DNA of 64,000 nucleotides from Octopus sinensis. Its lineage: Eukaryota. The translations under genes and the position numbers were made by a program. The notes below the pieces were generated by a model. The model saw only the letters and a list, made by a program, of their open reading frames with translations, did not search any database and was not told where the DNA came from. Shown here in pieces: positions 3,494 to 33,255 of this stretch (positions are counted from its first letter, which is position 1; every line of letters starts with the position of its first letter). The DNA is taken from contig NC_043002.1 in NCBI RefSeq assembly GCF_006345805.1, positions 89,094,001 through 89,158,000 on the forward strand, in the 5' to 3' direction.

Positions 3494-3542
<49 letters not shown>

Positions 3543-4067: not shown

Positions 4068-4102
<35 letters not shown>

Positions 4103-5608: not shown

Positions 5609-5668
<60 letters not shown>

Positions 5669-7484: not shown

Positions 7485-7520
<36 letters not shown>

Positions 7521-7622
7521 CAGATGGATCAATAGGTAGTTAGATAGATAGATAGATAGATAGATAGGTAGGTAGGTAGGTAAATGAATGGATAGATGGG
7601 TGGACAAACAGACAGACAGACA
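7320..7622. repeat. (GATA)n/(GGTA)n/(GACA)n compound microsatellite with higher-order units
   Basis: Seen directly. The unit gatggatcgataggtagttagatagat recurs. Confidence 0.95.
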
Positions 7623-9655: not shown

Positions 9656-11161
9656 ACTGTTTATAAACATAATACCATTTTTTGCCAAAACTAAGATCTG
9701 AGGAAACTAGCGATGATTGTCTATATCACATGTGGCTCTGTGTCAAGAAGTCTGCTTTGGAACCATGTAGCTTAGGGTTCATTTCAACATGTTGCTCACC
9801 CCCATGTTCACTATCCTGTTGTTGTTGGGTTTTGGGTTGCTTTTTTTTTTCTGCAGACACGCTAAAACCACGGTTTCTAGCATCATTATCATCATTTTAA
9901 TGCCCACATGGGATTTGTTGAGGCAGATTTCTTACAGCTAGATGCCCTTCCTCTTTGTGACTCTAACCTGTTTCCAAATAAGGTAATATTTCCCCATGAC
10001 CAGATATGTTTTCACAGAAGACTAGAATCAAAAGACACTGCTTGAATGATGGTGATACTTGTTTACAACTATCACATGATGTCAAAGGCAAGGAAAGAGT
10101 AATACACACCCATGCATATGTGCACACATGCATGCACTCACACAAATATATACATGTACATATATGATGTGCTTCTTTCAGTTTCCCTCTATCAAGTCCA
10201 GTCACAAGGCTTTGTTGGCCTGGGGCTATAATAGAAGACATTCAAAGCTGTCCTTTGTCTTAGAATGGTAAGATGTGATTTAAAGGAAGATTTGGTTATT
10301 TCTAAGCAAGTCAAACAACTACAGATAAGGTCCCTTGTTGGCTTTCGATAGTAGAAGTTTTAATCAACAGTCACGTACAGGTAAGATGACTTAAGAGGAT
10401 GGACCATTAAGCTTTTTATCGCCATTATACAATAGCTGGGTTACCTATATGCAACAGGTACCAAATCATTTTTAAAATTTAACACATTAGTTATAATCCA
10501 GAGATATATTAAGCACAAGCACATTCCCTTGGAGGAGGAAACAAAGACACTTTTGTGTCTATCCCCATCTTAATTAACATACAAGATAGGCCAGAAGAAA
10601 TTCTGTGTCCCTTCACATATACGTCGAGAAGGCAGGGCAAACTATTCTACTCTTGCCATACCTCTTCTTACTAACACCATACAGGATCCAAGACAAACTC
10701 AAAATTCAGCTGCTCCCGCCTCTTCTATTCATAAAATAATGAAAGAACTACTAAACTAGACAGCAGCTGTTACGGAATGCAAGTCTTTTTAAAATTCTTT
10801 CAACCACTTTGAAGTATGCTAACAGCTGAACATTACATTGGTCACCATTTTTCAATCATTTGTTCAAATAAACGTTTACAAACACACGTGTGTGTGTCAG
10901 TGTGTGTACGCGCGCTTAAGTCTTTGTTTACTTACGTAGTCACGTATGTTAGGAGAGAGATTTACACACACTCGCTGGAATTGTTTGTGCATATATACAT
11001 ATTACACACGAGCCAACGATAGACCCTCTAAGTCAGAGATTCTCAACCGGGATCCACACAAGATTTTGTTAAAATTTATGTGCAATAAATTGGGTTTACT
11101 TCTACTATACACAAAATATTTTAGCAGAATTTTTTAATACAATTCCTAATAATTCTTAATT

Positions 11162-11465
11162 ATAGGCGTAGGTGTGGCTGTGTGGTAAGTAGCTTGCTTA
11201 CCAACAACATGGTTCAGGGTTCAGTCCCACTGCGTAGCACCTTCGGCAAGTGTCTTCTGTCATATATATATATATAGTGTTTGTGCGTCTGTGTTTGTCC
11301 CCCCAACATCGCTTGACAACCGATGCTGGTGTGTTTATGTCTCCGTAACTTAGCGGTTCGGCTAAAGAGACCGATAGAATAAGTACTAGTCCTGGGGTCG
11401 ATTTGCTCGACTAAAGGCGATGCTCATGGCCACAGTCAAATGACTGAAACAAGTAAAGTAAGTAA
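11162..11465 (+). mobile_element. SINE family A, internally deleted
   Basis: Same head and tail as 26940-27354. Confidence 0.85.
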
Positions 11466-12026
11466 ATAGAAATATAATGGGACTTTTTTAAACATCGAAT
11501 GTTTATTAGATTAATCAAATGGCTCTATTGTTCTTGGCAATCATCGGATATGCTAGAAATATCAGTCAAAATTCCTTAAAACCAGACTCATATTGTCTTG
11601 GGAAATGGTACAAGAGATAATGTGTCTACGAATGAACTGCTCATGGTTGGAACTTTTTTTTTTGACAACAGGTCTACTCGATCAGAGCCTTTCATTGGGT
11701 AAATGAAAACTTAAATGCAGCAATATAATCCATATGCGAGTCTGTCTATGTTGTATTGAGCTACGATCAAGATTCCTAAAAATTCAACAGACTCCTAAAA
11801 GTATTGCAATCAAGTGTCAGATGACAGGTACCCTCTTCAAACATCTAATGTCGGTTGTTACAATGGGGGTAAAAAAAAAAGGGGGCCTCGAGAGGACCAA
11901 CACACCCTTACACACTCACGCGCTTCCGCATCTACCGCACGCGAAATCAGAAACGTGCGTGTGTGTGAAACAAGCTTCTATCTCAAGAGTAGATCTGAGT
12001 GGTCGGTAACGAATAAGTGACATTAC

Positions 12027-12044
12027 AGTACCATGAGCCGCCGC
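12027..12044 (-). CDS. Candidate 18-nt in-frame microexon (AAAHGT) in the first PPP1R14 intron
   Basis: Minus strand reads ~120 nt polypyrimidine tract ...tttcctgtttAG|GCGGCGGCTCATGGTACT|GTAATG. Phase 0-0, compatible with the exon-1 donor. No transcript evidence is available. Confidence 0.5.
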
Positions 12045-14196
12045 CTAAACAGGAAACACCAGATTAAAAACAAACAGATAAAGTGAAAGATGTAGAAAAA
12101 AAAAGAGGAAGGAATGAAATAGAAAGAAAGAAAAAAAATACCGTAAGAGCGAAAACGAGAGATAAGGAAAGAATATATTAAGATAGCGACGATTTCTTCC
12201 GCACACATCACACAGAAGATTGTATTTCATATTTAATAGCAATCTTATTTTCTTTTATCATTAAAATCTTAATTTTAGAAAGTACACGCGCGCACACACG
12301 CACACATCTCTGTTGGTGCAGGGACTAGTTTCGTTATTTCCATGACAAGGCTTTTCAGGTTTAAACTCACATTCAAAAACCATACAATATCAAAGCATTA
12401 AGAGATATTTGAAACACGTTTCAAAAGATCAATGGAATGAATATACTATACTGCAAACTGAATTATATATTTATAGTGGGATGTTGTTCTTTTAAATTTC
12501 CTCTGCAACACTTGCTGACACAGATTGTAAATTCAGATCGCGTCAACACTCTAGCATGCGGACACACATTTTATTGCCTGTATATTTTTTTTTTCTTTAC
12601 TATAAAGTATTCTTGTGTATGTAAAACAACCATCAATATTATGAATGCAATATCGAATTCACTATCCATTTGCAGGAAATTATTTTCTTTGATGTTGATG
12701 GTATCGTCAATTGACGGACATGAATCTAGAAGAAACTTTAGTACCATAAAGGTAGTACCAAAGGTGAAAGGAATTATTGTTAATGCACACGTTTTCGGAG
12801 AGGAAAGGCCCAAAAAAAAATTAATAAATAAAAAGAACCTTAAACCGGCACTTAATGCAGCCATTTTATCTACGTAAACTGCATGATGTCTCAAAAGAAA
12901 AAAAAAGTTCTCACACTGGTAGTTGCAGGAATTGGTGTCGGGTCACAGTGCCACTAAATCGACTTCATATGTAGGTGTGCTATGTCAAAGACATGAATTA
13001 CATGAAATCCTGTTTATTCTTTAAAAGAATGTTGCATCGTATATTAGAATATGTGTAATACCGTTATTGCACTTTAACTCCCGGTTCCCCCTCATCAAGC
13101 AGATCAATGATCAAAGGTGTCCCTATTTCGACCATCCTTTTATATCTATACACACACACACACATACAAAGAGACTATGTTGTCGAATGTTTATTTTTTT
13201 TTTTTTTTGTTATTATTATTAAGATGATTGAGTGAGGATTTAGGGAGTTGTGATAAGTGAAATTTTATGAAAACATCAGAAATTCATTTATCTAAAAAAA
13301 AATTTTGCAAACGGTAAAGCGATAACGCCAAGGGAAAATTTAAGTGCAAAAGTAACTATCACCTATGGTTATTTTCCACATGGCGCCCTGGCCCCATAAT
13401 ATAATCCAAGTAGATCTCCCAACAAATATACAACCTAATATCGTTTTCCCATTTAAAAAAAATTATTTTATTAGAGCCATTGGAATTATGATAAATAAAA
13501 AAAAAGGTATGAACATCTCAATTCTAATCTTTCTTCCTTAAAATGCAGAGTTTCGGCGCCTATTTAAAAATCGTGGTAAATAATCACAGGAAAGACGGAA
13601 ATATATTGAAATGAATGGAAAGATTAAGAGAGATTTTATCTAGATTTACAAATATTTAGAGAAACACTGATTTGCATTACATGTGGTTTAGATCTAAAGC
13701 GAATTCTAACAATCAATGCATACATTAACACATGCTAGTTTGAGAAGATACACAAACGTGTTATCGATATGGTGCTCGTTTGAATGTTGAATGCGTGCAC
13801 TTTGTCCCATTTCATATAAGCCGGCCTTCATGAAGAAAAACATTTTATATTCGATAGAATGAAAAAATTATATTGATTCTTTTTTATTTTTCCCATAAAG
13901 CACAAAACCAAAGTTCTATAGAATAAACCACAGTATATTACTGGTACAATGTATTTTATCGACCTCCAGGAAGATGAAGAATGAAGTCATCTGGCGAGAT
14001 TTTTATTCGGAAAACAGTGTTATCGAAATATTTTTAGATGAATGGGAAAATACGGAGAATTGTATAATCGATAATTTCTTGTTCAAAACAAAATTATAAT
14101 TTGAATACAGGAAAAAAATTAATAAAATATATATGCGTGAATTGAGAAGAAGATTTTAATGATTCAGTAAAATATGATGAAAACAAAGGTTCTTAC

Positions 14197-14475
14197 CTTG
14201 CAACCGTACAAGAACCGTAATCTTTCGTCAAGCCAATCTTCAACTTTTAAACGTTTCCTAATCAAAGACATTTGATGCTGACCATACTTGGCGGTCAAGT
14301 ATTTCTTTTTTTGTTCTTTAATCGCCTCTCGCTGTGTGTTGAAATTTACCGATCGGTTATGAGCTGATGATGAAGGGGATGTAGCTGAACGAGCAGCAGG
14401 GGAACGATGCTGGGAACTACTAGAATTGCTACTACCAGTGGCTACTTTGTCCAAAGAGTATGTTGTGGTCGCCAT
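14197..14475 (-). CDS. PPP1R14: Protein phosphatase 1 regulatory inhibitor subunit 14 family (CPI-17/PHI-1/KEPI-like), first coding exon (93 aa); later exons not found in window
   Basis: Translation has a Ser-rich N-terminus, an RSVNF (RVxF-type) motif and KYLTAKY...IRKRLKVEDWLDERLRFLYGC, which matches the CPI-17 core RVTVKY...RRLDVEKWIDGRLEELY. The exon ends at a canonical phase-0 donor AAG|GTAAGA (intron starts at 14196 on the minus strand). Confidence 0.9.
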
Positions 14476-15450
14476 TCTTAGAGAGAAGGTCCCAAATACA
14501 AGGAACCAGTCAACACTCCAAACTTTAGATTTTCAATTTGTTATGAATTATTTTAAATAATAAATAGAATCTGAAGTTCTCGTGTAAAAATGTTGGTAGC
14601 TATGAACTAATTCAGTTTCTCTTCTTTCTTTCTCCGGCTTTACGTTGTCTACCTATGCCGCCCTGGGAGATGAAGCAAAAAGTTAACTTTATCTGTTAAA
14701 CTAACTTTGAAATAAAAAACGAATTCAACTTCCAGTTGAGGCAGTAAATTTGGACACGTGTCCATGTAACTCTCTGTAAATTCGTTAATAATCCAAAACA
14801 AGATTGTTATACCAAGCACATTTTGTCTGTTTGTAGTTATATATTCTCTGCTTGAATTACTTGATGTTCATCAAACAATAACTGATATTTGTTTTTTAAA
14901 GTATACATATGTGTATGTGTATATATATATATAGTTATAGCAAATAATTATAACAAAATTAAAAGATACTATATACAAATTGATACTTCGATCATTAGTA
15001 ACGATACCTACAATCAACAATCTGCGAGAGCCAGTTTCGACTACGCGTATACTAAAGTAGTATCACAGATTTGAGTGCTTGCTTGCTAATATAACTTAAG
15101 GTAAAAATCATTCAATCTCAAGAAATTGGTGCTGGTCTACGGCGTCGGCAACAATTAGTCCACGAGAGAATTGGTAGAAGAGTTCACTAAAATCAGTCTA
15201 AATGCCGTGAGTGAGTGAAAAATCTAACACTTTGGGCTCTTGCTCGTCGTCTAAGAGCAACGAAAGTACACACGGTGTGTTGTTACTTAGGCTTCCAAAC
15301 TGCTGGACGAGATAATGTGTTTGCTTTTATACAAAGCACAAAAAAAACGATCGCTGCTGCTGCTGCTTCTGTTGCCTGACCTTGCATATAGACACACCCC
15401 CTCTTACTCGCTTTATCCCTTTTCTGCTTTCTCTTACACACACACATCAC
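14476..15450 (-). promoter_or_regulatory. Probable 5' UTR/promoter region of the PPP1R14 gene
   Basis: TE-free, CpG-retaining unique sequence directly upstream of the ATG. TSS not determinable. Confidence 0.4.
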
Positions 15451-15684
15451 TTTACTTTAGTCATTTAAAGTTACCTCCCTTGGAAGATGCTTTTTACTTC
15501 TTAATTTTAATCAGAAATTGAATTAAAATGTTATTTTCATGTGAAAGAAAATATAAATAAATACTGATCTTTTTCCTACTGTGCAATCATTTCAAACCAT
15601 AAAGATATGCGCAAAAGATTAAGGAAGTAATTTAGTCATTTATACACGCACACATACACACACATTATGAGCGTGTGTGTGTGA

Positions 15685-15734
<50 letters not shown>

Positions 15735-15759
15735 AGGTTTGGAGATGATGTACAGGTAT

Positions 15760-16076
15760 TATATATTAGAAGAAATGAGATACTCAGAAAATCGGATGGT
15801 TTATATTTACAGATATTTATTTGTATATTACATTTTTTATAATATCATCACTTAGATCATTAGCGCTTTCTCTCCCATTCTAGTGGGGTTTTCAAATCAA
15901 ACTAAGTTCCTCTCACACAGAACTTAGTTTGATTTGAAAACCCCACTAGATGGGAGAAAGCGCTAATGACTAGTTATATGTTTTATATGATATATATAAA
16001 AAATCTAATATACAAATAAATATCTGTAAGTATAAACCATCCAATTTTCTGAGTACCTCATTTCTTCTAATATATA
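15760..16076. repeat. Long inverted repeat (~150-bp arms, 10-nt loop)
   Basis: Perfect 30-bp core 15880-15909 / 15920-15949. The arms extend with a few mismatches and indels to the flanking (TA)n. Confidence 0.92.
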
Positions 16077-16090
16077 TATAATATATATAT

Positions 16091-16147
<57 letters not shown>

Positions 16148-16148
16148 A

Positions 16149-16182
<34 letters not shown>

Positions 16183-16216
16183 ATATATATAATATATTAT
16201 ATATATATCATTACAT

Positions 16217-18580
16217 ACATATCATCATCATCATCATCATCATTTAGCATCCGTTTTCCATGCTAGCATGGGTTGGACGGTTCTACTGGGGTCTGTGAAG
16301 CCAGAAGGCTTCATCAGGCCCAGTCAAATCTGGCAGTGTTTCACGGCTGGATGCCCTTCCTAACGCCAACCACTCTGTGAGTGTAATGGGTGCTTTTACG
16401 TGCCACCCGCACTGGTGCCAGACAGAGCTGGCAAATGGCCACGAACGGATGGTGCTTTTATGTGCCACCGGCACGAGGGCCAGGCGAGGCTGGCAATGGA
16501 CACGAAACGGGGCGGTACTGGCAACGGTCGCGAAACGGAAAGTTCTCTTACATGCCACCGGCACTGGTAACACATCTGCAATTTCCATTGATCGATTTCC
16601 ATGATCGATTTCGATTCTGATCCTCACTTGCCTCAATGGGTCTTCACAAGCAGAGTTTCGACATGCCACCGGCACTGGTAGCACATCCGCAATTTCCATT
16701 GATCGATTTCGATTCTGATCCTCACTTGCCTCAACACTCTTCACAAGTAGAGTTTTGTGTCCCAAGAAGGGAAGGTATGCATACGTAGGCTGGCTCCATC
16801 CCATGTAGAAGGCCACGGGTTGTGGACTCACTTGTCCTGCCGGGTCTTCTCGCGCACAGCACACTTCCAGAGGTCTCGGTCTCTAGTCATTTCCTCAGTG
16901 AGACCTAAAGTTCGAAGGTCGTGCTTCACCACCTCGTCCCAGGTTTTCCTGGGTCTGCCTCTTCCACAGGTTCCCTCAACCGCTAGGGTGTGGCACTTTT
17001 TCACACAACTATCTTCATCCATTCTCGCCACATGACCATACCAGCGCAAACGTCTCTCTTGCACACCACAACTGATGCTTCTTAGGTCCAGCTTTTCTCT
17101 CAAGGTACTTACACTCTGCCGAGTGTGAGTACCGGCATTACACATCCATCGGAGCATACTGGCTTCATTTCTAGCGAGCTTACGCATATCCTCAGCAGTC
17201 ACGGCCCATTTTCACTGCCATGTAGCATGGCTGTTCGTACACACGCATCATACAGTCTGCCTTTCACTCTGTGCGAGAGGCCTTTTGTCACCAGCAGAGG
17301 TAAGAGCTCTCTGAACTTTGCCCAAGCTATTCTTACTCTAGCAGTTACACTTTCAGCACACCCCGCCCCCGCTGCTGACTTGGTCACCTAGGTAACGGAA
17401 ACTATCAACTATTTCTAGTTTTTCTCCCTGGAAAGTGACGGAAGTTGGTCTCAGAGCATTTTCAATGTTTATTGTTCCTGAGCATCTGCCACATACAAAA
17501 ACCATCTTCCTAGTTAGCCTTCCTTTGACATTGCTGCATCTCTTATGTGTCCATAGCTTACACTTGGTGCATCTTATAGAGTTTCTACCTACACCTTTTT
17601 CTACAGATCGAGCAGGGCCATCTACCTGAAGGTGTTTGTGATTTGTCTACCTTCCTACTGATTACGACTTTGTTTTTAGCTAGATTGACTCTGAGGCCCT
17701 TCGATTCTAATCCTTGTTTCCACACCTGAAACTTCTCCTCCAGTTCTGATAGCGACTCAGCAATTAGAGCAAGGTCATCAGCATAGAGGAGCTCCCAGGG
17801 CATCCTGTCTTGAATTCCTCCGTTATTGCCTGGAGGACTATGATAAATAGGAGGGGCTGAGTACTGAGCCTTGGTGGACCCCTACCTCTACCCGGAATTC
17901 TTCACTGTACTCATTTCCAACCCTCACCCTACTAGCGGCGTCCCTATACATGGCCCGCACAGCTCTCACTAACCATTCATCTATCCCTAGTTTTCTCATT
18001 GCCCACCAGATAAGGATCGGGGGACCCTGTCGAAGGCTTTCTCCATGTCAACAAAAGCCAGGTACAGGGGCTTATCTTTGGCTAGGTATTTCTCCTGCAG
18101 CTGCCTTACCAGGAATATAGCATCAGTAGTACTTTTCCCTGGCACAAACCCAAACTGCATCTCATCTAAACTAACTCTCTCTCTAATTAGTTGGGCTATG
18201 ACCCTCTCCGTAACCTTCATCACCTGGTCCAACAGCTTGATACCTCTGTAGTTATTTGTATCTAGGGCATCACCTTTACCTTTGTAGCAGTTGACTATTA
18301 TACTGCTACACCAGTCATTGGGTATGACCCCTTTGTGTATCACCTGATTAACTATATGGGTGACTAGGCTATAGCCGACACTACCAGACATTTTGAGCAT
18401 CTCTGCAGTGATTCCTGATGGGCCTGGGCTTTCCCTGTCTTCATGCTTCTAATGCCTTAGCTACCACAGAACCAACTAGCTACGACTATCACTCGGAAGC
18501 TGGTCCTCTGTTGGGTCACATTCGGCAGACTCTCTTTATCCCATTCATTTTCTTCATTCAGCAACCTTTCATAGTGGCAT
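16217..18580 (-). mobile_element. RTE-clade LINE, 5'-truncated, frameshifted, relatively young; complete 3' UTR and (GAT)n tail
   Basis: ORF fragments contain NYRGIKLL, QFGFVPGKSTTDAIF, FVDMEKAFDRVPR, LLYADDLAL, RRLRWYGHVARM and GRGRPRKTW. The (CAT)n tail is at 16217-16243. Confidence 0.95.
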
Positions 18581-18930
18581 GTATGTATGTATATAGGAAA
18601 GTTTTTGAAAGTTTTTCAGTAACTAAAACACCTAGCGGTGGAGCAGTGTCAATACTTATCTGAGGTAAAGAAAAAGAACAATAGAACTATATCCCATAAT
18701 CAACAGGTACACTTGCCCAATCCTAGGCAAAATCAAAGTTATCAATATTCCCATTGCAAATTCATAGCAAAATCCATGCCTGGATAGAAATTACATTCAT
18801 ACATCTACCGCAAATAGATGCATCTTTTTTATTTTTTATTTTCTTTCCTTCTTTCTTTTACTCTCTTTAAGTCCATTAAAATCGCATTATTTATTGGATG
18901 ACCCCAATGTGTGTGTGTGTGTGTGTGTAT

Positions 18931-18961
<31 letters not shown>

Positions 18962-18974
18962 ACACATACACACA

Positions 18975-20190
18975 TTGGGGTCATCCAATAAATAATGCAA
19001 TTTTTTCAATTGTATGAACTAAAAGTCAGAGGGGGATGGGATAAAATAACGGCATCAACTTGCTATAATAGCAGGTAGTAATTTTACCTTGTACTGATTC
19101 TTAGTGCAAGATTTTGAAGAGTGCAGTTCGATTTTAATAGTTATTTTTTCAAAGCTATAACAGAAGTTGTAAAGGAGCATATTCAGCATATTTTGCTTTA
19201 TGAGTTCAACAAAGGTAGCAACACAAAAGAATGTGTGAGGAATATTAATACAGTATATGGGGGTCAGACAATAAGCACAAGCCAGTGTCAACGGTGGTTC
19301 CAGAAATCCCAAGCTGGAAACTACAGCTTAGAAGACAAGCCTCAGAGCTTGATGAGGATGTTCTGCAAACCCTGATGGTACAAAATCCCATCGTAACTGT
19401 TGAGGAACTAGCAAAGAAGCTTGGATTTGGTCGTTCAACCATTCATCGACACCTATGTGCCATCAGAAAAGTCAGCAAATTGGGTCAATGGGTTCCTCAC
19501 AAACTTCCTGAATCTAATCGCGTACAGAGAGTGAATGTGTGCTCTTCTTTGCTGTCATATCTCACGAATTAACCTTTTTTGGACTGAATAGTGACTGGAG
19601 ATGAGAAATGGGTTCTCTATAAAAATGTCAAGTGCTGAGGAGAGTGGGTAGGGAGAGGAGAAACACCAGTACCCCAGGCCAAAGAAGCTCTTCACCAACA
19701 TAAGGTGTTGTTATCTGTTTGGTGGGTATGAAAGGTTTAGTCCACTTTGAACTTTTAAATGCAAACCAAACAATAACAAAGGAGATCTACTGTGGGCAGC
19801 TTGAGTGGCTTAAGTCAGTGCCTGAAGAAAAACGACCATCTTTGGTTTCAAGACGAAAGGTGTTCTTCCATCAGGATAATGCTTGGCCACATACAGCAAG
19901 AATGACATTCCAAAGGCTGGAGCAGTTTGAATGGGAAATGATATCCCAGCCACCATATTCACCAGACACTGCCCATCTGATTATCATTTATTCTGTAGTA
20001 TTTTTCTGCAGAAGGAGTATTTTGCATCACGGACAAGTGAATTTTGGAAGAGGGGCCTTGCAAGTCTACCAGATAGATGGAAGAGAATTGTAGGAAATGA
20101 AGAAGAGTATATTTTAGATAAGAAAGGAATTTTTGTTTATCTTAATTTTGAAAAATAAGTGTAAAAAACCACATTATTTATGGGATAATG
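18975..20190 (+). mobile_element. Mariner (Tc1/mariner) element, near full length, transposase pseudogenised
   Basis: Fragments HILLYEFNKG, QRWFQK, WVPHKL, VTGDEKW, HQDNAWPH and PPYSPD. Left TIR ttggggtcatccaataaataatgc; degenerate right TIR at ~20165-20188. Confidence 0.92.
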
Positions 20191-20532
20191 TCATTACTCT
20201 GATATATAGAAGGAATGGCCATTGCAGTTTGGATATATGCTGTTCTGGAAGAAATTCATCTTAAGCATCCCAAGTAGTTGGTTATTGTCAATTGTTTTGA
20301 GCTAGCTGTTTTGATGAGTCATAGTATGTTTGGCATTACTGTTGTACTACAGGATGTTGTCAGAATTCTTCTGAAGGCATTGTATTGCTTTTTTCCTTTC
20401 TGGATTCAGGATACTCAGATCACAATATTTCTCTGGGTTGGGTTTTGTAAGTGACCATGCAAGTATCTTCTCCAGCAAGCTCAAGGTTAGCCTTATTCCT
20501 TGGACTGAATATATATACATATGTATATATAT

Positions 20533-20722
20533 ATCATCATCATCATCATCATCATCATCGTTCTCCATGCTAGCATGGGTTGGACGGTTCGACCGGGGAT
20601 CTGGGAAGCCAGAAGGCTGCACCAGGCTCCAGTCTTATCTGGCAGTGTTTCTACAGCTGGATGCCCTTCCTAACGCCAACCACTCCGTGAGTGTAGTGGG
20701 TGCTTTTTACGTGCCACCTGCA
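20533..20722 (-). mobile_element. RTE tail-only copy within (TA)n (partial repeat at ~20855-20960)
   Basis: Very similar to 1-190. Confidence 0.85.
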
Positions 20723-21299
20723 CATATATATATATATATATTCAGTCCAGTGTGGAATGAAAGCTGTGAAGGAAGCTGAAATGTATTGAGGGTGCAAAGA
20801 GATTGTTGGAGTAGTCTGTGAAAGATAGATAGAACTTAGTAACTAAAACACCAAGATCTGGCAGTGCTTCTACAGTGGGATGCCCTTCCTAACGCCAACC
20901 ACTCCATGAGTGTAGTGGTTGCTTTTTATGTGCCACTAGCACAGGGGCCAGAGGTGGCTGTGACTCCAGATCATCAGCATCACTCAGGCTCAACACAGAT
21001 TTCACATAAGACACATGTCTGCTGAAAGAATTTCACATTTTTCTGCTTTATTTCTAACCCAGATTACTTATTTGTCATATCTAGGACTATGTCTTTCTCC
21101 ATTTCTAGGTTAAGGGTGAAAAATAAAGCAAAACACAACTGATCTTTACACACAGACACACAGAATAACAGCAATCAAATAATGACAGCAGAGTGCACAA
21201 CAAACATCAACTATCTGGCTGTTGCCTGTACTCTTGACAAGAGATGCTGGTTAGGCTTGTTCATATTAGCCCATGTTGCTGGATAATGTTTCGTTCCTT

Positions 21300-22442
21300 T
21301 AAGAATATTATAGAATGGAAACTTTTCATAGATTGGAATTTAAATCCTAATCTCTATAGAAATTTATTGTTTCAAGAAGACATTGAATTTGAATTACTTT
21401 TAATTTTTACAATTATAGATGCCTGGAAAACGTGATAGTCAGTTGATGCAAGGCCTGGTGACTATGATGGATGACAGAGTACTTCCAAGTTCAGTTACTG
21501 TAACTTGAGTAGCATTCTTTGTGCAACATGTGGTCAAACATTGTCTTGCAAGAGAATTGGCCTGTCTCTATTGACCAATCTTGGTTTATTTACAAGTTCA
21601 CTCATCATTTCATCCGATTTGTTGATGTATACATTTGCTGTAATTGACTTACCAGATCTCAAGAAGATGTAGTGGATGGCACCAGCGCTGGACCATTAGC
21701 TTTTTTTTGGTGAATATTCTTTTTTGGATTGTGTTTTGGCGCTTCATCTCTATCCAACCACCATGCAGAATGCTTGCTATTGTTGAAAAGAATCCATTTT
21801 TCATCACATGTAACAATATGATGCAAAAATGGCTCACTTTTATGCCATGACAGCAAAGAACAGCAAGTTTCAAGACAATGTGTCATTTGATGTTCATTTA
21901 GTTTGTGTGGTAACCACTTGTCCAGTATATTTACCTTACCAATTTGTTTCAGATGGTCTAATACAGTTGGAATCAAAACATTAAACCTTGCTGCTAACTC
22001 AAGTAATTTGAGATGTATCAAACTACAGTTTCTAGTTCATTATTATCTACCTTTGTCTCAGGTCTACCATGAGGATGATTTTCAAGAGTAAAGTTACCAG
22101 ACCAGAACTTCTCAAACCATCGACATACAGTGTGCTCATTCACCACATCTTCACCAAACACCTCATCAATATTTCAAGCTGTCTGGGATGCATTAGTTCC
22201 ACAACGAAACTTATTTTCATAAACAATGCAAATTTTTTATCTATCCATGGGTTCACAAAAATTGATTTACAAGAGAAAACTCACAATATAATCAGACACC
22301 ATGAATAGCATTTTGAAAAGTGATAACGTAACTCTTCAATGTTGTAAAACAAAGAATTGTCAGCATAAAACATTAGATTTAACAAATGTCAAACTTGATG
22401 CATAAGAAAATCAGGCATTTCACACTTAATGACTTGATATAT
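21300..22442 (-). mobile_element. Second mariner relic (different subfamily)
   Basis: KWLPHKLNEHQ, FLHHIVTCDEKWILFNN and DYH fragments. TIR-like end next to (TA)n at ~22440. Left boundary approximate. Confidence 0.85.
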
Positions 22443-22532
<90 letters not shown>

Positions 22533-22630
22533 GTTTGTTTGTATTCCACCTGCCTTCGTCTTTTGTTTATTTCCGTAAACCTGCCTTCGTCTTTTGTCTA
22601 TTTTCATAAAGCTTCCCGTTATATATATAA

Positions 22631-23617
22631 ATAGCCTGGGAAAATTTCAGAGAGCTCTTACCTCTGCTTATGACAAAAGGCCTCTCGCTCAGAATAAAAG
22701 GTATGACGCATGTGTACATGGCAGCGAAACATGGGGTGTAACTGCTGAGGACATGTGTAAGCTCACAAGGAATGAAGCCAGTATGCTCCCATGGGTGTTT
22801 AATGTCAGCGTGCATACTCGACAGAGTGTAAGTACCTTGAGAGAAAAGTTGGACCTAAGACGCATCAGAGGTGGTGTGCAAGAGAGACGACTGCACTGGT
22901 ATGGCCATATGGCGAGAATGGATGAGGATAGCTGTGTGAAAAAGTGCCATACCCTAGTGGTTGAGGGAACCTGTGGAAGAGGTAGACCCAGGAAGACCTG
23001 GGATGAGGTGGTGAAGCATGACCTTTGAACATTGGGCCTCACCGAGGCAATGACTAGTGACCAGGACCTGTAGAAATATGCTGTGCTTGAGAAGACTCGG
23101 CAAGCCAAGTGAGACCATAACCTCGTGGCCTATGCCAGGGGTGTAACCAGCCCACTTATGCATACCTATCCTTCATTGGACACTAAACTCTGCTTGCAAA
23201 GACCTGTTGAGACAACTGAAATCGAAATCAAATTCGATGACTGGCATCCGTGTTAGTGGCGCACTAAGAGTACCATCCGAGCGTGATCGTTGCCAGAGCA
23301 TCAAACTGGCTTCTGTGCCGGTGGCACATAAAAAGCACCTTTCGAGCATGATCATTGCCTGCGTCGCCTTACTGGCACTTGTGCTGGTGGCACGTGAAAA
23401 AACATTCGAGTGAGGTCGTTGCCAGTGCCACTGGACTGGCTCCTGTGTAAGTGGCACATAAAAAGCACCATTTGAGCACAGCCATTGCCAGTACCGCCTG
23501 ACTGGCCCTCGTGCCGGTGGCACGTAAAAGCACCTACTACACTCTTGGAGTGGTTGGCGTCAGGAAGGGCATCCAGCTGTAGAAACTCTGCCAGATCAGA
23601 TTAGAGCCTGGTGCAGT
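22631..23617 (+). mobile_element. RTE LINE 3' fragment, same family, with 3' UTR repeat array
   Basis: HGSETW...RRLHWYGHMARM...GRGRPRKTW, followed by UTR units and the GGAAGGGCATCCAGCTGTAGAAAC motif. Confidence 0.93.
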
Positions 23618-24544
23618 GTGTATTTTACTGCCCCCTCCCTTGATAGTGCATGTTAGTTGGAAATGAATATCTCTGCTATGCAAGCAGTGTCCTTCATCCC
23701 TATTTTTCCATGAGAAAAGGAAGATCATGGGTAAATATCTTACTTGGAAAGAGTTGAGGGCTGCTGCTAACAGTTCTGCCAGCTCACCACCTTAATTAAT
23801 ATAAGCATTAACTTCAAACTAGGCACAAAACCACAAATTTTTGGCATGATTAGTCAACTAAATCAACCCAGTACTTCAACAGTTATTTTATTGATCCTAG
23901 AAAGATGAAATTCAAAACTGACCCAAGCAAGCTTTGAACTTAAAATATAAAGAATTTTGAATCAAACATCACAAGGTGCATTTTCTTTTCTTTTTCTCCT
24001 CTTTTTTTTTTTCCTTTGATGCTATAACACTTCTGCCAATCCACCACTTTAATTAATATAAAAACTAAAATGTAAGTTAATTACTAAGATATCTCTAATT
24101 GATAGCCTTCTGAAAATTAAAAGTACTTTTGTTGTTTTCTACTTGTAAAAAAAGGATTACATGTGGGGCTTTTAATTCTTTGTCTTGAAGACAAGGAGGG
24201 ACAGAGATTTTTATGGCCTCCTTAGAGTGTGAGATCAAAATACATACCATATATACTCAAGTAAAAGTCAAATTTTTTAGACCATTTTTTAAGGTCTAAT
24301 TTATGGAGTCAACTATTACATGGATACTACTTTTGAGGGGCTGAAATTCAAGCTAGAATCTGAAACCCAACTGATCTCTAAGCAAATAAAAACAAAAGCA
24401 CAATGAATTACAGTAATATTACTAATTCTATGCATCAAAACATGCGTCCTGGTAAATAACATAACCTATAAAGAAGGTCACATAGCTTTCTTGTGCAGTT
24501 ACCACTAAATGTCCATAATGTAGTGTCAAGTTGTTAATCTGGAG

Positions 24545-24663
24545 CAGGGATTCCCAAAATGTGTTCTACAAAACTCCAGGGTTCCCTGAAAGTTATCAGG
24601 GGTTCCACGTTTTTAAAAATAATGTCGAAGGATTCTGCGACATAAGAAGTTTAGGGACCACTG
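24545..24663. mobile_element. Small old hAT-like MITE
   Basis: CAGGGATTCCCAAA ... TTTAGGGACCACTG imperfect TIRs. TSD degenerate. Confidence 0.35.
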
Positions 24664-26939
24664 ATTTAGTGATTAACTAAATGTTTTTAAGCTTACCACA
24701 GTCATGCCTCTGTACAAATTCATACAGTGGTGTTTGCTGTTGTTCACCAACAGTGCTAGACAAACTAGACTCTCTCTCTCTCTCTCAGTCTGAGTATTGC
24801 TTTCTTGAAGAAGAAATTGGCTATGATCAAACCTGGAGAGGGCTTGTCAGGTCAAAAATATCTCTACAACATCTGTCTATTTCATCAGTATGTCATTTTT
24901 TAATATATAGTATATTTTAGAATTTCACGTAAAAATGCATGATGTTCCCACAAACCAATTTCATACAAGACAATTTTTTCATAATTTAATTATTACATAT
25001 ATAATGCCAAAAAGCACACTGGAGACTGATAGCCAATAGAATAGAAATTTTTAAATTTATTCTTTCTGTGCATCCCAGTACCAAATGCTTTATGGCCCAG
25101 TGTTGGTCTGCAGTCCAGTGGTTAGAGATCCCTCCCCTAGAGGACAGTTAATACAAAGAAGGTAATCATCGCTTCATACTATTTGATGGGATTAGAAGTC
25201 TGAATTTGAGTTTCTTAACACTTTCAATGTGGGAATCATCAACAAATGATTTGCTCATGGTATACTGACAGATAAAAGACATCAATAAGCAATTCTGATC
25301 ATCATATAATTTTAAAGACATAAAAATTCAGCTTCAAAATATTATTGATTTTCACAAATTTTGCAACCAAGAGGACATGCTTAGACATTAATTTACATAA
25401 CTAAAGTATTATGCTGAATAAGAGTTACTCATCTTCTATAATTATCTTCTAATAATATTGAATATTTTTCCAAGGGTGACAAGCTAGCAGAACTGTTAGA
25501 ATGCCAGGTAAAATGTTAAGCAGCATTTCATCCATCTTTACATTTACTCCTGTCAAGGTCAACTTAGCCTTTCATCATTTTGGGGTCAATAAAATAAGTA
25601 CCAATTCTCAACTGATTTTCACTAAACTTTACACACACATTACTTATGTCCCAGTGATGGTCATACACAATAACATTTTGCCCAGAGCTTCAGTGTATTA
25701 TTACTTGGTTAGAGAATATAAAAATGAAAGGATTTTATCTATTCATTTATTTTAACTGTCCAATAGCAAACAATCTTAATCTCCATAGTTAAACTGCATT
25801 AAACTTTGGCAATCTTACCTTTCCCTATTCTGAGTTACTTGAAAGGTGATGTTCTCTTCCCTCTCTTCTATTTGTTGATACCTTTGTTTACCTACCAATG
25901 CATTGTTTCACTTTAAGGATGCTTATTTACCCATCCATTATGATATTCCGAATGCAACATCTTTTCACTGCGAACTGCTAAAGATTCAAAACGGTATTCG
26001 CGTACTGAAGTCAAACTCTTTATATCTTCCTTTTTCATCACTGAAGTCAATTTCAGAGTGGTCATACACTGTAAGCATGTAGCAAATACATTGTTTTAAC
26101 TCTACTTTTTCAAGTAGGTATTATATTGCCATTTTTTAACATACCAATCATACTTCTCTCCAAAATGAATTAGCTCCCTTTGCTGTTGAATCAAATAAAC
26201 TCGCAGACGGGAAGTTTCAACATCTTCCTTCAATTTCCTTACACCATTCATGTGGCTGTTTCTGACAAGAAATTTCACTTCCATGTAAAACAACTATATT
26301 TTGTAGTCATTATCCATAATCTACTCCCCAAACACTTCAGTAGCTCTAATCTGTATCACTTGCAAACTTATATGTTCTATGACCATTAAAGTGCAATGAC
26401 TTCCACAATAACCAGTTTTCAATTTGGTTTTCATTCCTAGGTTAATCAGAAACATAGATTTGCGCGCTACTGATAAACCCTCTCCGTAGTTCAATTATTT
26501 GGTGAAAAAAATACCACCAAAGCAACTTAAACCATCCAAAGGACAGGTGTGTTTGCTAGTCCAGCTATAATTCACATAATTAAATATTCATTAACTCATT
26601 TACATGTTTCAGTCATTGAATGTAGCCAGGCTAAGGCACTGTCTTTTAGGGGTTAGTTGATCAAATCAAATCACCCTCTAGCATTTTAAATCTGGTATTT
26701 ATTTAATCAGTCTCTTTTTGCTAAACCACTAAGTTACAGGGATGAAAACAAACCTAATTGGCACCTAGCTGGTGAGAGACAAACACAAACACACACAACA
26801 GGTTTCTGCACAGTTTCCATCCATCAAATTCACTCACAAAGTATTGGTTGATCCAGGGCTGTATACTAGAAGACACTTGCCAATGGTGCTGCACAGTAGA
26901 ACTGAACCAAAAACCATATAGTTGCAAAATAAACTTCTT

Positions 26940-27354
26940 ATAGGCACAGGAGTGGCTGTGTGGTAAATAGCTTGCTTACTAACCACATAGTTCCGGGTTC
27001 AGTCCCACTGCGTGGCACTTTGGGCAAGTGTCTTCTACTATAGCCTCGGGCCGACCAAAGCCTTGTGAGTGGATTTGGTAGATGGAAACTGAAAGACGCC
27101 TGTCGTGTATATGTATATATATATATATGCGTGTGTGTGTTTGTGTGTCTGTGTTTGTCCTCCCCCAACATCGCTTGACAACCGATGCTGGTGTGTTCAT
27201 GTCCCCATAACTTAGTAGTTCGGCAAAAGAGATCGATAGAATAAGTACTAGGCTTACAAAGAATAAGTCCTGAGGTCGATTTGCTCGACTAAAGGCGGTG
27301 CTCTAGCATGGCCACAGTCAAATGACTGAAACAAGTAAAAGAGAGAGTAAAGAG
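26940..27354 (+). mobile_element. tRNA-headed SINE family A, full length, with an internal (TA)n(TG)n
   Basis: A box TGGCTGTGTGG, B box GGTTCAGTCCC, CORE-like CTTGGGCAAGTG and tail GAAACAAGTAAAAGAG. Many related copies in the window. Confidence 0.88.
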
Positions 27355-28033
27355 TTAAGCATACAACACTTTTTCTACTTTTTGTTCTTCTGAAGAATAT
27401 TGTTCCGTCTAACTGCAAATAAGTTACCTATTTTAGGAAAATCAATTGTTCTAGTAAAAATAAATTCACTAACACTATGTCCAACTTAGTCATATATAAT
27501 TAATAGCTTGCTTTGCATATGCATTCATACACAGTCATATATATTACATGTAATTGAGCACAATCTACATGGATAATGTAACTTAAATTTTCCTTTCTCT
27601 TGTACACACATCTTTTCTGTCTATAAGTTCAATAATTTTCACTAGGCTTACACATCTTTTAAAACATCCTGAGAGGAAGACTTCATCATAGTCTCTATTC
27701 AAATAGCAGCAGCAACACATGTATTTTGTTTTTCTTTTTTCTTTTCTTTTTACTGTTTTGTGGTAGGGGAAGGAGAGATCAACATCTATAACCCTTTATA
27801 TTTTTAGGGATTCTAAAACTGATGGAATGAAGAGATGAAGTTACTCCAAACCAGAGATCTATTTACAGCTTGGTACCAGTGACGTCACAACTCATTTCTA
27901 CAGCTGAGTGAACTGGAGCAACACGAAATAAAGTGTCTTGCTCAAGAACACAACGCACAGCTCAGTCCAGGAATCGAACTTATGATTGTGAGCCCAGGAG
28001 CCTAAGCTTTCAGATTACTGTCAAATTTACTTT

Positions 28034-28260
28034 TTTACTCTTTTACTTGTTTCAGTCATTTGACTGTGGTCATGCTGGAGCACCGCCTTTACTTGAGCAA
28101 ATCGATCCCAGGACTTATTCTTTGTAAGCCTAATACTTATTCTATCAGTCTCTTTTGCCAAACCGCTAAGTTACAGGAATGTAATCACACCAGCATCGGC
28201 TGATGTTGGCGGGGACAAACACAGACACACAAACATATACACACACATATATACATACAT
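28034..28260 (-). mobile_element. SINE family A, 3' half
   Basis: Reverse complement of the family tail, truncated at its internal microsatellite. Confidence 0.82.
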
Positions 28261-28287
28261 ACATACATATACATATATATATATTTA

Positions 28288-28347
<60 letters not shown>

Positions 28348-28351
28348 ATAT

Positions 28352-30032
28352 GCCAATGAGAAGCATCAATGATGCTATATTCCTGGTAAGGCAACTGCAG
28401 GAGAAATACCTAGCCAAAGATAAACTCCTATACTTGGGTTTTGTTGACTTAGAGAAAGCCTTTGACAGGATCCTCCGATCCCTTATCTGGTGGTGATGTG
28501 GAAACTGGGGATTGACGAGTGGTTAATATGAGCTGTACAGGGATGCCGTTAGTAAGGTAAGGGTTGGCAATGAGCATAGTGAAGAATTCTGGGTAGAAGT
28601 AGGGGTTCACCAAGGATCAGCCCTCAGCTCCCTCTTATTCATCATAGTCTTCCAAGCAATAACAGAGGTATTCAAGACAGGAGCTCCTCTATGCTGATGA
28701 CCTTGCTCTCATAGTGGAATCACTACCAGAACTAGAGAAGAAATTTCAGGTGTGGAAGCAAGGTTTAGAATTGAAGGCCCTTAGAGTCAATGTTGCAAAA
28801 ACTAAAGTCCTAGAAAGTAGGAAGGCAAACACATCACAAACCCCTTCAGGTAGATGGTCCTGCTCGATCTGCAGAAAAGTTGTAGGTAGAAACTCCATAA
28901 GATGTGCCCAGTGTGAGCTATGGATGCATAAGAGGTGCAGCAACATCAAAGGAAGGTTAACCGGGATGATAGCTTTTGTGTGTGGCAGATGCACAGGGGC
29001 AATAAACTCCGCAGATGCTCAGAAAATGGATTTTATCACATGCCGGGAGAGAAACAAGAAGTAGTTCATAGCTTCTGCTACTTAGGCAACCAAGTCTGTA
29101 CTAGGGATAGATACTCGGAGAGTGTTGCCACTAGAATAAGAATACCCTAGTCAAAGGTCAGAAAGCTCCTACCTCTACTGGTGACAAAGGGCCTCTTGCT
29201 CACAGTGAAAGGTAGATTGTATGATGCATGTGTGTGAACTGCCATGCTACACAGCAGTGAATCATGGGCCGTGACTACTGAAGACATGTGTAGGCTTGAA
29301 AGAAATGAAGATGGTATGATCTGCTGGATGTGTGATGTCAGTGTGCACACACAACAGAGTGTAAATGCCCTGAGGGAAATGTTGGACATAAGAAGCATCA
29401 AATTGGTGTGCAAGAGAGACAACTGTACTGGTATGGTCATGTGAATGGATGAGGAGAGCTGTGTGAAGTGTCACTCCCTAACAGTGGAAGGAATTCGTGG
29501 AAGAGGGAGGCCTAGGAAGACATGGGATGAGGTGGTGAAGCATGACCTCTGAAAGTTGGGCCTCACAGAGGCCAAGACCTCTGTGATTGAGAAGACCTGG
29601 CAAGTAAAGTGAGATCACTGCCATAGCCTATACCAGTGTTGCATAACCAGCCCATTTAAAAAGTACCACTGAATCGTCGGGTGACATGCCATGCTTGGAG
29701 AGACCTATTGAGTCAAGTAAAATCAAAAATCAAATCACAATCAAATGGAAATTGTAGTTGTGGCCATTGCAAGTGCCACCTAACTGGCTCTCGTGCTAGT
29801 GGCACGCAATAAGCATCATTCATGCATGGGTCGTTGCCCATGCCAGTGACACATAAAAAGCACCATCCGAACGTGGTTGATGCCAGCCCACCCCACATTC
29901 GGAGTGATTGATGCTAGGAAGGGTATCCAGCTGTAGAAACATTGCCAGATCAGATTGGAGCCTGGTGAGGCCTCCTGGCTTGCCAGTCCCCAGTCAAACC
30001 ATCCAACCCATACCAGCATGGAAAACGGACGA
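28352..30032 (+). mobile_element. RTE LINE, 5'-truncated and degenerate, starting at a (TA)n tract
   Basis: DAIFLVRQLQEKY, VDLEKAFD, YADD (ctatgctgatgac ~28690), Cys-rich insert, and the same 3' end. Confidence 0.93.
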
Positions 30033-31271
30033 TCAGAGATGCTATTATAATGTGATAGCTTTTAATAAATACTATTTACAAATGTTAGAAATACTTGCAT
30101 TGATAGGTGAAGTCCTCAATATGTGTGTAAGTGGCAAATCAGTTGTCATTACAGCATAGGAGAAAATGCTTTACAGTGTTTATTCCTACTCTCTGTGCTT
30201 AGCATTCAAATCTTATCATAGCATTTAAACCAAATTTTCTCAAAACAACTTGTCCGACCGTCCCATAGGCCTCCCCTTTGAGAAATACCACCAAAATTTG
30301 AGACACCAGCAAAAGAAGAAATAAAGATAGATTTTTTTTCTATTCCAAAGAGAAACGATTTCCCATGGCTTTATTGATCGCATTCTCACCTGGAATCGAT
30401 TTATGTAATTTTTTCAAGACTTAAACACGCCCTGATACTGTCGGTATCTACATATCAAATTTGAGCACGATTGGATGGAGGATGCCCGAGATCGTAGAAG
30501 CCACATACACACACAGAACGGATTTTATATAAGATATATATATATATATATATATAGCTTCTTTACAACATCTGGATCATCTCAAGAGCTAGGATTTGTT
30601 AACTCAGTGCTCAAGAGTTTTGGACTGGCTGCTAATGAGACAAAAAAAATGTTGGCAGAAAATTGTCAGAAGCCACTGAGAAAGCCAACCTTTCCATCTG
30701 GCTCATGAGAGAGGATGAGTGATACAGCAAGAATGAGCAGTGAGGGTGGTAGAAACATCTGGCCCAGAGGTGCAACATCTAACTCAATAAACTTTGTGTT
30801 GTCTGAGAGTTTTGTTACCTACATCGATCAGTGGCCCCAGGCAGCTCTGGCATAATGGTGGAAGAGGCTGAAACACCAACAGAACTGTTTCACTGCCTGA
30901 AGAGACATCAGCTCCTGCATTCAGAGATGGAATACAGCAGCACCCTCGGCACACGTGTTTACCCTAAATGTAATCCTTCACGACTTTTAGTTTTAAATTT
31001 TACACAACTCCAAAGCAGTGCACTAACAGAATTGTTCTTGTGCTGGGCCAAATGCTTACCGTTATTTTTACTGACTTCACGTTCTGAGTTTAAGTTCCAC
31101 CAAGATTGACTTTGCCTCTCGTCCTTTTGAGGTTGATAAAACATTGACACCAGTTGAGCACTAGTGTCAATGTAATCGACTTACCCACTTCCCCAAAATT
31201 GCTGGCCTTGTGCCAAAATATGAAATCATTATTAAGTAACTTGCTCTGATATCAACTTGATTACAAACACC

Positions 31272-31663
31272 AGATCTTTTCGGTTTGAACGGCAGTTTTT
31301 TCTAGCGGTGTCATATGAAATTGTCACCCATAATTATGACCCTAGTATCAATCTATTGCATTTCAATCTGTTTTAGGGTTAGGAGTGGGGGGAAGGGTAT
31401 CTTTTTTTCTTCACAAATGTAAATAAACCCAATCTGTTTCTTAAACGAGGGACATATTCATACGGCACAGAATGTTTTTTTTTTACCTCAATAGACATCA
31501 GTGATTGGTTGAAATTGCAGAAAAAAACACAAATATAGAACTTTCTCAATAAAGCCAAGAGAAAAAGATGTTTTATAAACACATTCTACCAGTATACGAA
31601 GTTTAATATCTTTTAGTTACCTAGAAATTATGTTAAAAACTGCCGTTCAAACCGAAAAGATCC
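31272..31663. mobile_element. Merlin-like MITE, copy 2, in opposite orientation to copy 1
   Basis: Same TIRs and internal sequence. 8-bp TSD CAAACACC at 31264-31271 and 31664-31671. Confidence 0.85.
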
Positions 31664-32329
31664 CAAACACCAAACAACACACCAAAAGTAATTTACTTTC
31701 TATAATCAGGAAGACTGTTTTTGCATGTATGCTCTCCCATCTGCTTGATATATCTAAAATAGTTTACATTTTAGATTCTTCAAGAGTTATCTTCCTTCTT
31801 TTGTATGCGTGGGCTGTTCTGCTAAACCCATATGTGAAAGAATATATTTATTTTTATTTTCCTGTGTATTTTATTCAAATAACTTTATTTGTGTTCAAGG
31901 CATACAGGTGTATAACCGCAAAAGAAGAATTAACAAATGAATTTGAATATAATGTTTATAGATATACTAAGACATCTGTAAACATTGCATCACATTCTAT
32001 TTAAAGCCATTACCATTTCCACAGTGCGGTTAAGAAATGAATGACAAAAATATCAAAATATCAAAAAAATATTCATGATTATATATGCAATTGGCGATCT
32101 ACCCCTTCTTTTCTCTCAACCATTAAAAAATTAAAATTTTGTTTAATAAAATTCGATTTATTGAACCGCAAAATTAAACGAAACACAACTGTTTTATTAT
32201 ATGTGAAAAAGGTCAAACAAAATTTTTTTTTTTTTTTACATATTTGAACGGAACCCTGTTTTTTTCTTGTTTTCTATTTTGATTTTTATATATGTGTAAA
32301 ATAAATAAACAGCAAAGAAATTAATCTGT

Positions 32330-32521
32330 TTTCCTTTGTGACGTATGCTTGTGATTTTCTTCGACGTTATTTTCATTCCGAAATGTCATTTCCAATAACT
32401 TCCGGTAACGCATGCTCGCGTCTCCAAAAATGGTTCCGTTCGTCGACTGTCTTGTGTAATGCCTGTCTAATTATTGCTTATGAATTATCCATAATTTGTC
32501 CCTTTTTTTAAATTTAAAACA
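32330..32521 (+). promoter_or_regulatory. Probable core promoter/5' UTR of the LRP11-like gene
   Basis: Local CpG enrichment just upstream of the ATG. Contains TGACGT (CRE-like, 32339), ACTTCCGGT (ETS, 32398), CGCATGC (NRF1-like, 32409) and AAAATGG (YY1-like, ~32427). Confidence 0.55.
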
Positions 32522-32968
32522 ATGATGAAACCTCTTTTTATCTTTCCGTGTATATTTTTATACTGTTTAGCTTCAGAATTTATCGCTGAGGACTTTGAAC
32601 AAGGACCTTCTATAGCTATTAGGTTGAGTAAGAGACTGGAACGATCGAAGCGGGGCCAACAGGATTTGTTGCAAAACAGTGATGATGCCCAGAGTGAAAC
32701 ACAAACACCCACCAAACAGGCAGATAATCTGCGAGGAAATATAAAAACACCCGATCGGGATAATTCGGGTACGTTATCCGTTTCTGGATCACAGGCTGAG
32801 CATGGCGTCTGCTACTATAACAAGAATACAAGCGTCATCATCAAAACAAACAGCTCTCTGACAGCGGGAGCAAAATTCATGAAATATGCCCAGGCTGTCA
32901 ATAGTATGGACTGTGCCAAAAAATGCTGTGACACAAAAGGATGCAATGAAGCTATATTCGAGAATAAG
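32522..32968 (+). CDS. LRP11: LRP11-like MANEC-domain protein, exon 1 (signal peptide, RSKR furin site, N-terminal half of MANEC)
   Basis: Hydrophobic leader MMKPLFIFPCIFLYCLAS. IIKTNSSLTAGAKF...CAKKCCDTKGCNEAIF resembles the LRP11/HAI-1 MANEC domain. Phase-0 donor AAG|GTAAAT. Confidence 0.85.
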
Positions 32969-33255
32969 GTAAATGTGCATTATATATATATATATGTTTA
33001 TATATTCATTATTATTTTTTATATTGAGGATATCCTAGCACAACATTTCACACACCTTTATAATCAAGTCAATGGAGGAGCCACTTCTTAATCGTGCAAC
33101 CTGTCATGCATAACTGCCAAATATCACTCAAAGTACGCTTTTCAATTACGTCTTAAATAAGTAAAACACACTATAAATGAGGTATAGAAAGGTGGGCTAA
33201 TTGCTTATATATATATATATATTAGAGCAGTTTGCTTTTGCTCTTATATATATAT

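Follow-up and report, generated by a model that had tools for sequence, protein, structure and literature searches.

The window analysed here is a stretch of 64,000 nucleotides of the Octopus sinensis genome (G000), C6:89094001-89158000; positions given without a contig name are counted within it. It contains the start of PPP1R14, a gene of the CPI-17/PHI-1 family, and a gene for an LRP11-like receptor. The two genes are divergent: they lie on opposite strands with 18,047 bp between their start codons, as an earlier note made from the letters of the window had claimed (about 18 kb). Their linkage is very probably ancient, and was likely inherited from the last common ancestor of the bilaterians. 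Papers are cited below by PMC identifier.

The gene pair in octopus

Coding exon 1 of PPP1R14 (14475-14197, minus strand) encodes 93 aa and ends in a GT donor. It has an RVxF-type motif, RSVNF, at residues 41-45, and its Thr61 and Tyr64 align with the phosphorylatable Thr38 and with Tyr41 of CPI-17 (PMC7460850). Exon 1 alone scores 21.2 bits against PF05361 (E 3e-4), below the cut-off of 22.4. A full-length relative that is 96% identical to exon 1, P0002, scores 46.1 bits and thus carries the PHIN domain. P0002 comes from a 1,020-base contig and comprises four exons, which are found over 199 kb of C6. Exons 2 (C6:88983319-88983215), 3 (C6:88944832-88944773) and 4 (C6:88909202-88909161) are on the minus strand outside the window, 125-199 kb from exon 1. 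As P0002 joins exons spread over this distance, the gene is evidently expressed, and its transcript spliced, in a close relative. For a protein of only about 149 aa, the gene takes up about 199 kb, of which about 125 kb is intron 1. No nested gene is evident among the filtered open reading frames (ORFs) in window positions 1-14196 and in L010-L021.

PPP1R14 has been described as a vertebrate-specific family (PMC7460850). On sequence grounds, its invertebrate homologues contradict this; sequence databases already name them. Exon 1 has 53 homologues among 57 candidates, which are PPP1R14B- or PPP1R14C-like by name in Argonauta, Lingula and chelicerates; the Priapulus match is a protein of unnamed function. 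Three PPP1R14 representatives look like deuterostome ones. A profile built from 22 invertebrate proteins has CPI-17 (1J2M) as a match at E 1e-10; the phosphorylated Thr is aligned, and in all 22 the inhibitor-site Thr is invariant, as is the Tyr three positions after it. Octopus PPP1R14 thus resembles CPI-17/PHI-1 in PF05361 and in the Thr aligned to 1J2M; it differs in being one gene rather than four and in having three extra residues after TAKY. Some copepod-type and branchiopod-type copies (L093, L099-L104) have an extra intron, at two different positions, inside the conserved TAKYG-HQM core. The octopus genome yielded one good PPP1R14 match and one good MANEC match in a search that scores the best candidates only; a second MANEC candidate resembles an apple domain. 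A first-look PF05361 family search of the same genome missed PPP1R14, so the reach of that search is weak.

All identified exons of the receptor gene are on the plus strand. Exon 1 (32522-32968) encodes a hydrophobic leader and the first part of a MANEC domain (PF07502, 38.6 bits), and is closed by a phase-0 intron after EK. Exon 2 (45556-45829) encodes the remainder of MANEC and a Thr-rich stalk, exon 3 (49384-49497) an EB module, and exon 4 (53778-53921) an LDL-receptor class A (LDLa) repeat. Exon 5 (56142-57224) is 1083 bp long and Gln/Asn-rich. The last exon (C6:89178013-89178557), which encodes a transmembrane segment and the tail, is beyond the window. The six exons have GT-AG ends and together form an uninterrupted reading frame of 868 aa. 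RefSeq models contain two further small exons, and the O. sinensis RefSeq protein of LOC115213543 matches the exons at 97-100%. The leader is followed by RSKR (32636-32647, plus strand), which we take to be a furin-type site. A short O. vulgaris model, P0055, lacks the Gln/Asn-rich exon, and most mollusc homologues belong to one of two size classes, of about 440-690 aa and 840-1200 aa; this exon is likely to be a conserved alternative exon, judging by the predicted proteins.

The receptor layout is MANEC, EB, a single LDLa and a single transmembrane segment, the last read from the sequence. The LDLa profile matches 41 of 45 homologues and the end of the C-terminal tail is identical in 44. The homologue P0249 scores 59.5 bits for MANEC; it has EB where PKD would be expected, and Pfam finds no PKD family in it at E 0.01. 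Kunitz domains, which would mark the protein as HAI-1 or HAI-2, are found by Pfam neither in the 45 homologues nor in P0249. The best match of the octopus MANEC domain in the PDB is that of HAI-1 (E 2e-7). Source databases call the homologues LRP11-like, and the receptor tail presumably resembles the tail of human LRP11; an Atlas search with the tail gave syndecan-like leads only, below 0.9. Because EB replaces PKD, the gene is best called LRP11-like: it is likely to be a pro-orthologue and not LRP11 proper.

The spacer between the start codons (14476-32521) consists mostly of transposons with no recognisable gene, as had been noted before. It is about two-thirds repeats, with a CpG observed/expected ratio (o/e) of 0.16-0.50 over 17001-32000; 57% of 16300-32200 recurs within 645 kb of flank, and 67% if mariner spans and one dispersed repeat are included. 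Of the 101 ORFs listed with 55 aa or more, 99 were scanned, and these gave Pfam matches to RVT_1, PHD/C1, Mos1 HTH and Transposase_1 only, the PHD/C1 matches falling inside frames of long interspersed nuclear elements (LINEs); a short-exon or non-coding gene could still lie within the spacer. The elements are a decayed LINE fragment with broken frames encoding reverse transcriptase and a PHD-like finger (16831-18448, minus strand), a decayed mariner with Mos1 HTH and Transposase_1 (19118-20155, plus strand), a 0.8-kb repeat dispersed on many contigs at 80-89% identity (25759-26560), a second decayed mariner (21662-22305, minus strand) and another decayed LINE fragment (28663-29441, plus strand).

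Each gene has a predicted promoter of its own. A TATA-box match (15324-15331, minus strand), some 860 bp 5' of the start codon of PPP1R14, marks a predicted core promoter, and CpG is retained on this side (o/e 0.8-1.0 over 11001-17000). CRE-, ETS-, NRF1- and YY1-like motifs (32339-32434, plus strand) directly 5' of the receptor start codon form a predicted housekeeping-type promoter, where CpG is again retained (o/e 1.11 over 32001-33000). The octopus pair thus appears to have two separate promoters, in CpG-retaining regions 17 kb apart. Bidirectional promoters have starts less than 1 kb apart; here there are 18 kb and two CpG peaks.

The pair in other invertebrates

Both proteins were found in nine named species. 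Their genes have consecutive identifiers on one contig in Argonauta hians (GAB1598313.1/GAB1598314.1), Mactra antiquata (ACF0H5_003132/003133) and Solemya velum (ScPMuIL_014732/014733); identifiers carry no strand information. In five others (Haliotis cracherodii, H. rubra, Tubulanus, Owenia and Dermatophagoides) the two proteins come from contigs of equal size, which is weak evidence of linkage when contigs are large (1.7 Mb in H. rubra and 2.1 Mb in Dermatophagoides). By our own estimate, two single-copy genes would be adjacent in this orientation by chance about once in 1,000 times, even within one chromosome. The Drosophila genes CG17124 and CG6495 are presumably adjacent too, and no paper naming both was found. 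CG17124 is located in 31F4-32A5 (PMC3146426); the supplement of that paper holds no match for the adjacency.

Orientation comes from a metagenome scan, which returned 80 PPP1R14 loci; 48 looked like spliced transcripts and were dropped, leaving 32 genomic contigs. Six of these have a MANEC exon upstream on the opposite strand, that is, head-to-head. The start codons are 564 bp apart in L073 (bivalve; PPP1R14 89% identical to Mactra), 459 bp in L075 and 844 bp in L090 (both grouping with Capitella, annelid-like), about 1.1 kb in L100 (branchiopod-like, weakly so), 5,288 bp in L084 (insect; PPP1R14 95%) and 5,822 bp in L097 (hexapod-like). Lineages were assigned by PPP1R14 likeness; the branch on which L075 and L090 join Capitella, in a tree of 59 columns, is long. 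All six MANEC exons exceed the Pfam cut-off, and their best matches are receptors of the fitting phylum. The octopus MANEC intron position is common to five of them, and in the sixth it is within a codon. Four of the six spacers are thus 0.46-1.1 kb, as measured between start codons and not between transcript starts, and these four keep their CpG (o/e 0.90-1.26).

The linkage that the earlier note expected in other invertebrates therefore holds in these contigs and in the three species with consecutive identifiers. Other lineages depart from it and weigh against a universally kept pair. In Capitella, the two genes are on different small scaffolds (206 kb and 35 kb). In the mite contig L077 (98% identical to Dermatophagoides), the last receptor exon is downstream of PPP1R14 and convergent with it, so that the genes are tail-to-tail; adjacency (1557-3347) was retained despite the altered orientation. 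Receptor models of Dermatophagoides and Tyrophagus are annotated as AP-2 sigma fusions, which suggests that the mite receptor has a new 5' neighbour. No MANEC gene was seen upstream in eight of the 32 contigs, namely L070 (2.0 kb of upstream sequence), L098 (7.0 kb) and six of copepod type (1.2-10 kb). Three of the latter (L072, L074 and L088) have 3.9-10 kb upstream of PPP1R14 without a MANEC gene, and copepods are likely to have lost the link, as far as these contigs represent them. L074 has a peritrophin-type chitin-binding gene in the MANEC place upstream and an AKAP7-like gene downstream. A further 17 contigs are too short: five of the L084 lineage stop before the MANEC position, and 12 have less than 0.9 kb upstream (starts approximate).

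Vertebrate copies and the age of the linkage

A third gene is shared with the human locus. Downstream of the octopus receptor is a minus-strand PCMT gene (exons C6:89240322-89236301, beyond the window), the last coding exon of which is 57,732 bp past the receptor stop. The closest solved structure for two of its exons is 1I1N (E 7e-14 and 2.5e-20), which we take to be human PIMT. A PCMT-family copy on C14 is PCMTD (PCMTD1 match, 1e-44). The C6 gene is closest to PIMT rather than PCMTD, and is thus PCMT1. In the gap between receptor and PCMT1, which was scanned in part, eight selected ORFs match no Pfam family.

The earlier note gave LRP11-PPP1R14C, SPINT1-PPP1R14D and SPINT2-PPP1R14A as human neighbours in divergent orientation. 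For vertebrates the three neighbourhoods are in print; in human, PCMT1 and LRP11 are presumably convergent and LRP11 and PPP1R14C divergent. The printed human order is PCMT1-LRP11-RAET1E-ULBP2-ULBP1-ULBP3-PPP1R14C (PMC3548333), and mouse Lrp11, Pcmt1 and Ppp1r14c are all within 0-12 Mb of Chr10 (PMC12666343). Octopus has the three-gene order of human 6q25.1, with PCMT1 and the receptor convergent and the receptor and PPP1R14 divergent, but not the RAET1/ULBP cluster. PCMT1 as third neighbour connects the octopus receptor with the LRP11 locus independently of any tree; this is support that the earlier note did not have.

The block is not seen to extend past PCMT1 in octopus. Instead, there are a proline-racemase-family gene and exons for a Prp19-type WD40 protein, Sec62 and 6-phosphogluconate dehydrogenase (L109:8350-8706 to L127:5933, C6:89256350-89433933); the first is divergent from PCMT1, with a CpG-retaining stretch between. 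PCMT-family genes with very short introns are also found on two unplaced contigs, at L149:945-1746 (C1794; L149 is 28% GC) and L150:1192-2349 (C8698). Dicyemids have tiny introns, and these genes may belong to another organism whose DNA is part of the assembly, for example a dicyemid parasite.

Two other vertebrate copies have SPINT genes as partners. Goat gene lists place SPINT1 directly beside PPP1R14D (PMC10763158), and ppp1r14a adjoins spint2 in Xenopus, a synteny that zebrafish and cavefish retain (PMC7460850). Homology to HAI-1 extends over 79% of the length of LRP11; MANEC, PKD and LDLa are common to both and Kunitz is not (PMC12580866). PPP1R14C, B, D and A have been listed as quadruplicates A-D with the topology ((A,B),(C,D)) (PMC8040251); LRP11, SPINT1, SPINT2 and PCMT1 are not among the listed rows of the supplement of that paper. 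The two vertebrate genome doublings would then have copied the pair. One first-round copy would have become LRP11-PPP1R14C, with the partner lost at PPP1R14B; the other would have gained Kunitz domains once and given rise to SPINT1-PPP1R14D and SPINT2-PPP1R14A. A single Kunitz gain after the first doubling is simplest, because both SPINT genes are beside one sister pair and the domain is found in none of the 45 invertebrate homologues. LRP11, SPINT1 and SPINT2 probably descend from one gene, as these neighbourhoods and domain layouts suggest.

Alternatively, the link could be protostome-wide only, the vertebrate neighbourhoods having arisen separately and the invertebrate receptor being ancestral to another MANEC lineage. 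Several points lean this way. The octopus receptor resembles LRP11 and HAI-1 in MANEC, one LDLa and a single transmembrane segment, but it has EB for PKD, an optional Gln/Asn-rich exon and no Kunitz domain. The Atlas puts KIAA0319-type clusters first for the isolated MANEC domain (0.91). No vertebrate or deuterostome name occurs among the 120 of 589 tail-profile matches listed, so that no tree bears on orthology and none includes a vertebrate sequence; no locus of a deuterostome invertebrate is among those seen. PCMT1 adjoins LRP11 in octopus and human only, among the genomes seen, and PMC8040251 states that its first-round pairing for this paralogon differs from that of Simakov 2020. The common PCMT1-LRP11-PPP1R14 order, the shared domain layout and the LRP11-like labels in the sources speak for common descent, and it is very unlikely that two adjacencies arose independently. 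A protostome-only link is accordingly improbable. That the pair predates the protostome-deuterostome split, as first proposed, is thus supported by molluscs, annelid-like contigs, arthropods, the printed vertebrate order and PCMT1.

The pair belongs to a known class. Conserved ancestral microsyntenic pairs (CAMPs) number 595; they are mostly 5'-5' (54.8% of the human ones) with short spacers, and are kept through co-regulation or through enhancers inside a neighbour (PMC3514665). PPP1R14 and the receptor are likewise non-paralogous, 5'-5' and separated by at most four genes, with a short spacer in some lineages. The class calls for at least four major lineages, and the pair is found in molluscs, annelid-like contigs, arthropods and vertebrates; the last count only if LRP11 and SPINT1 are co-orthologues of the receptor, and these lineages differ from the eleven of PMC3514665. 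The accessible main text of that paper does not name the pair, which its supplementary list may contain. Here the vertebrate partner varies by copy (LRP11, SPINT1 or SPINT2), and orthology pipelines may miss such a case. In literature that was mainly open-access, and outside the supplement of PMC3514665, no description was found of the invertebrate linkage or of one ancestral gene behind LRP11, SPINT1 and SPINT2. The supplements of PMC9023564, PMC7269912 and PMC12666343 hold no match, and the accessible parts of PMC12984403, PMC9935665 and PMC9883250 give no gene order for the locus.

Why the linkage may have been kept

An ancient block, inherited and then kept by shared cis-regulatory DNA, is the explanation that we favour as a whole, with some reserve. 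The ancestral spacer would have been short and would have served both genes, so that breaks in it would be harmful. Transposons or the RAET1/ULBP cluster would later have widened it and separated the promoters; in genomes with wide spacers, shared enhancers would be what now maintains the link. PPP1R14, with its TATA box and 125-kb first intron, looks like the tissue-regulated partner and the receptor like the housekeeping one. In compact genomes, the short CpG-retaining spacers fit the co-regulated kind of CAMP. In humans, rs7247241 is associated with SPINT2 expression, and the title of a work cited in the same paper links it to PPP1R14A isoforms (PMC11213234); both genes are Th2-specific STAT6 targets (PMC3526425).

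The shared regulatory constraint that the earlier note proposed is something we only infer. In octopus, with its two separate promoters, a shared core promoter cannot be the present cause of linkage, and a constraint that acts now would have to come from shared enhancers. No shared non-coding sequence was found among eight spacers, nor are the promoter motifs of octopus conserved as a set elsewhere. The mite rearrangement and the missing copepod link also count against shared regulation. The human co-regulation of SPINT2 and PPP1R14A may be no more than what neighbouring genes commonly show. We favour shared regulation as the cause of persistence only slightly.

The linkage could also be ancient but neutral. 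A spacer below 1 kb is a tiny target for breaks, and the pair may have survived by chance, with the octopus spacer growing after the coleoid genome was reshuffled. The short spacers in four of six contigs, the lack of conserved non-coding sequence, the altered link in a mite, its absence from the copepod contigs and the still recognisable elements in the octopus spacer are all in keeping with this. Chance accounts less well for an LRP11/SPINT neighbour at three of four vertebrate PPP1R14 copies, for pairs that persist across 5-18 kb spacers, or for a mite that retained adjacency after a change of orientation. Shuffling within chromosomes leaves 0.015 such pairs per genome (PMC3514665), a figure that ignores small targets. 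Neutral survival is possible but rather doubtful.

A third possibility is that both proteins act in one pathway, from receptor through a kinase to an inhibitor of PP1/myosin phosphatase, and that linkage secures their co-expression. The invariant Thr and Tyr, the receptor tail end common to 44 of 45 homologues and the joint induction of SPINT2 and PPP1R14A in Th2 cells would suit this. Against it, nothing in the analysis connects the two proteins, their predicted promoters are of different types, and SPINT2 is still linked even though it is not known to contain MANEC or LDLa. This is the least probable of the alternatives.

About 600 pairs of this class are already known, which limits the surprise. 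The origin proposed here for SPINT1 and SPINT2 is testable, and the printed view of PPP1R14 as vertebrate-specific is corrected. The invertebrate receptor is a single gene in which the function of LRP11, which is barely known, could be studied without paralogues. With spacers of 0.5-18 kb across species, a rearrangement in mites and likely losses in copepods, the pair offers a natural series on what holds two genes together after a shared promoter has gone.

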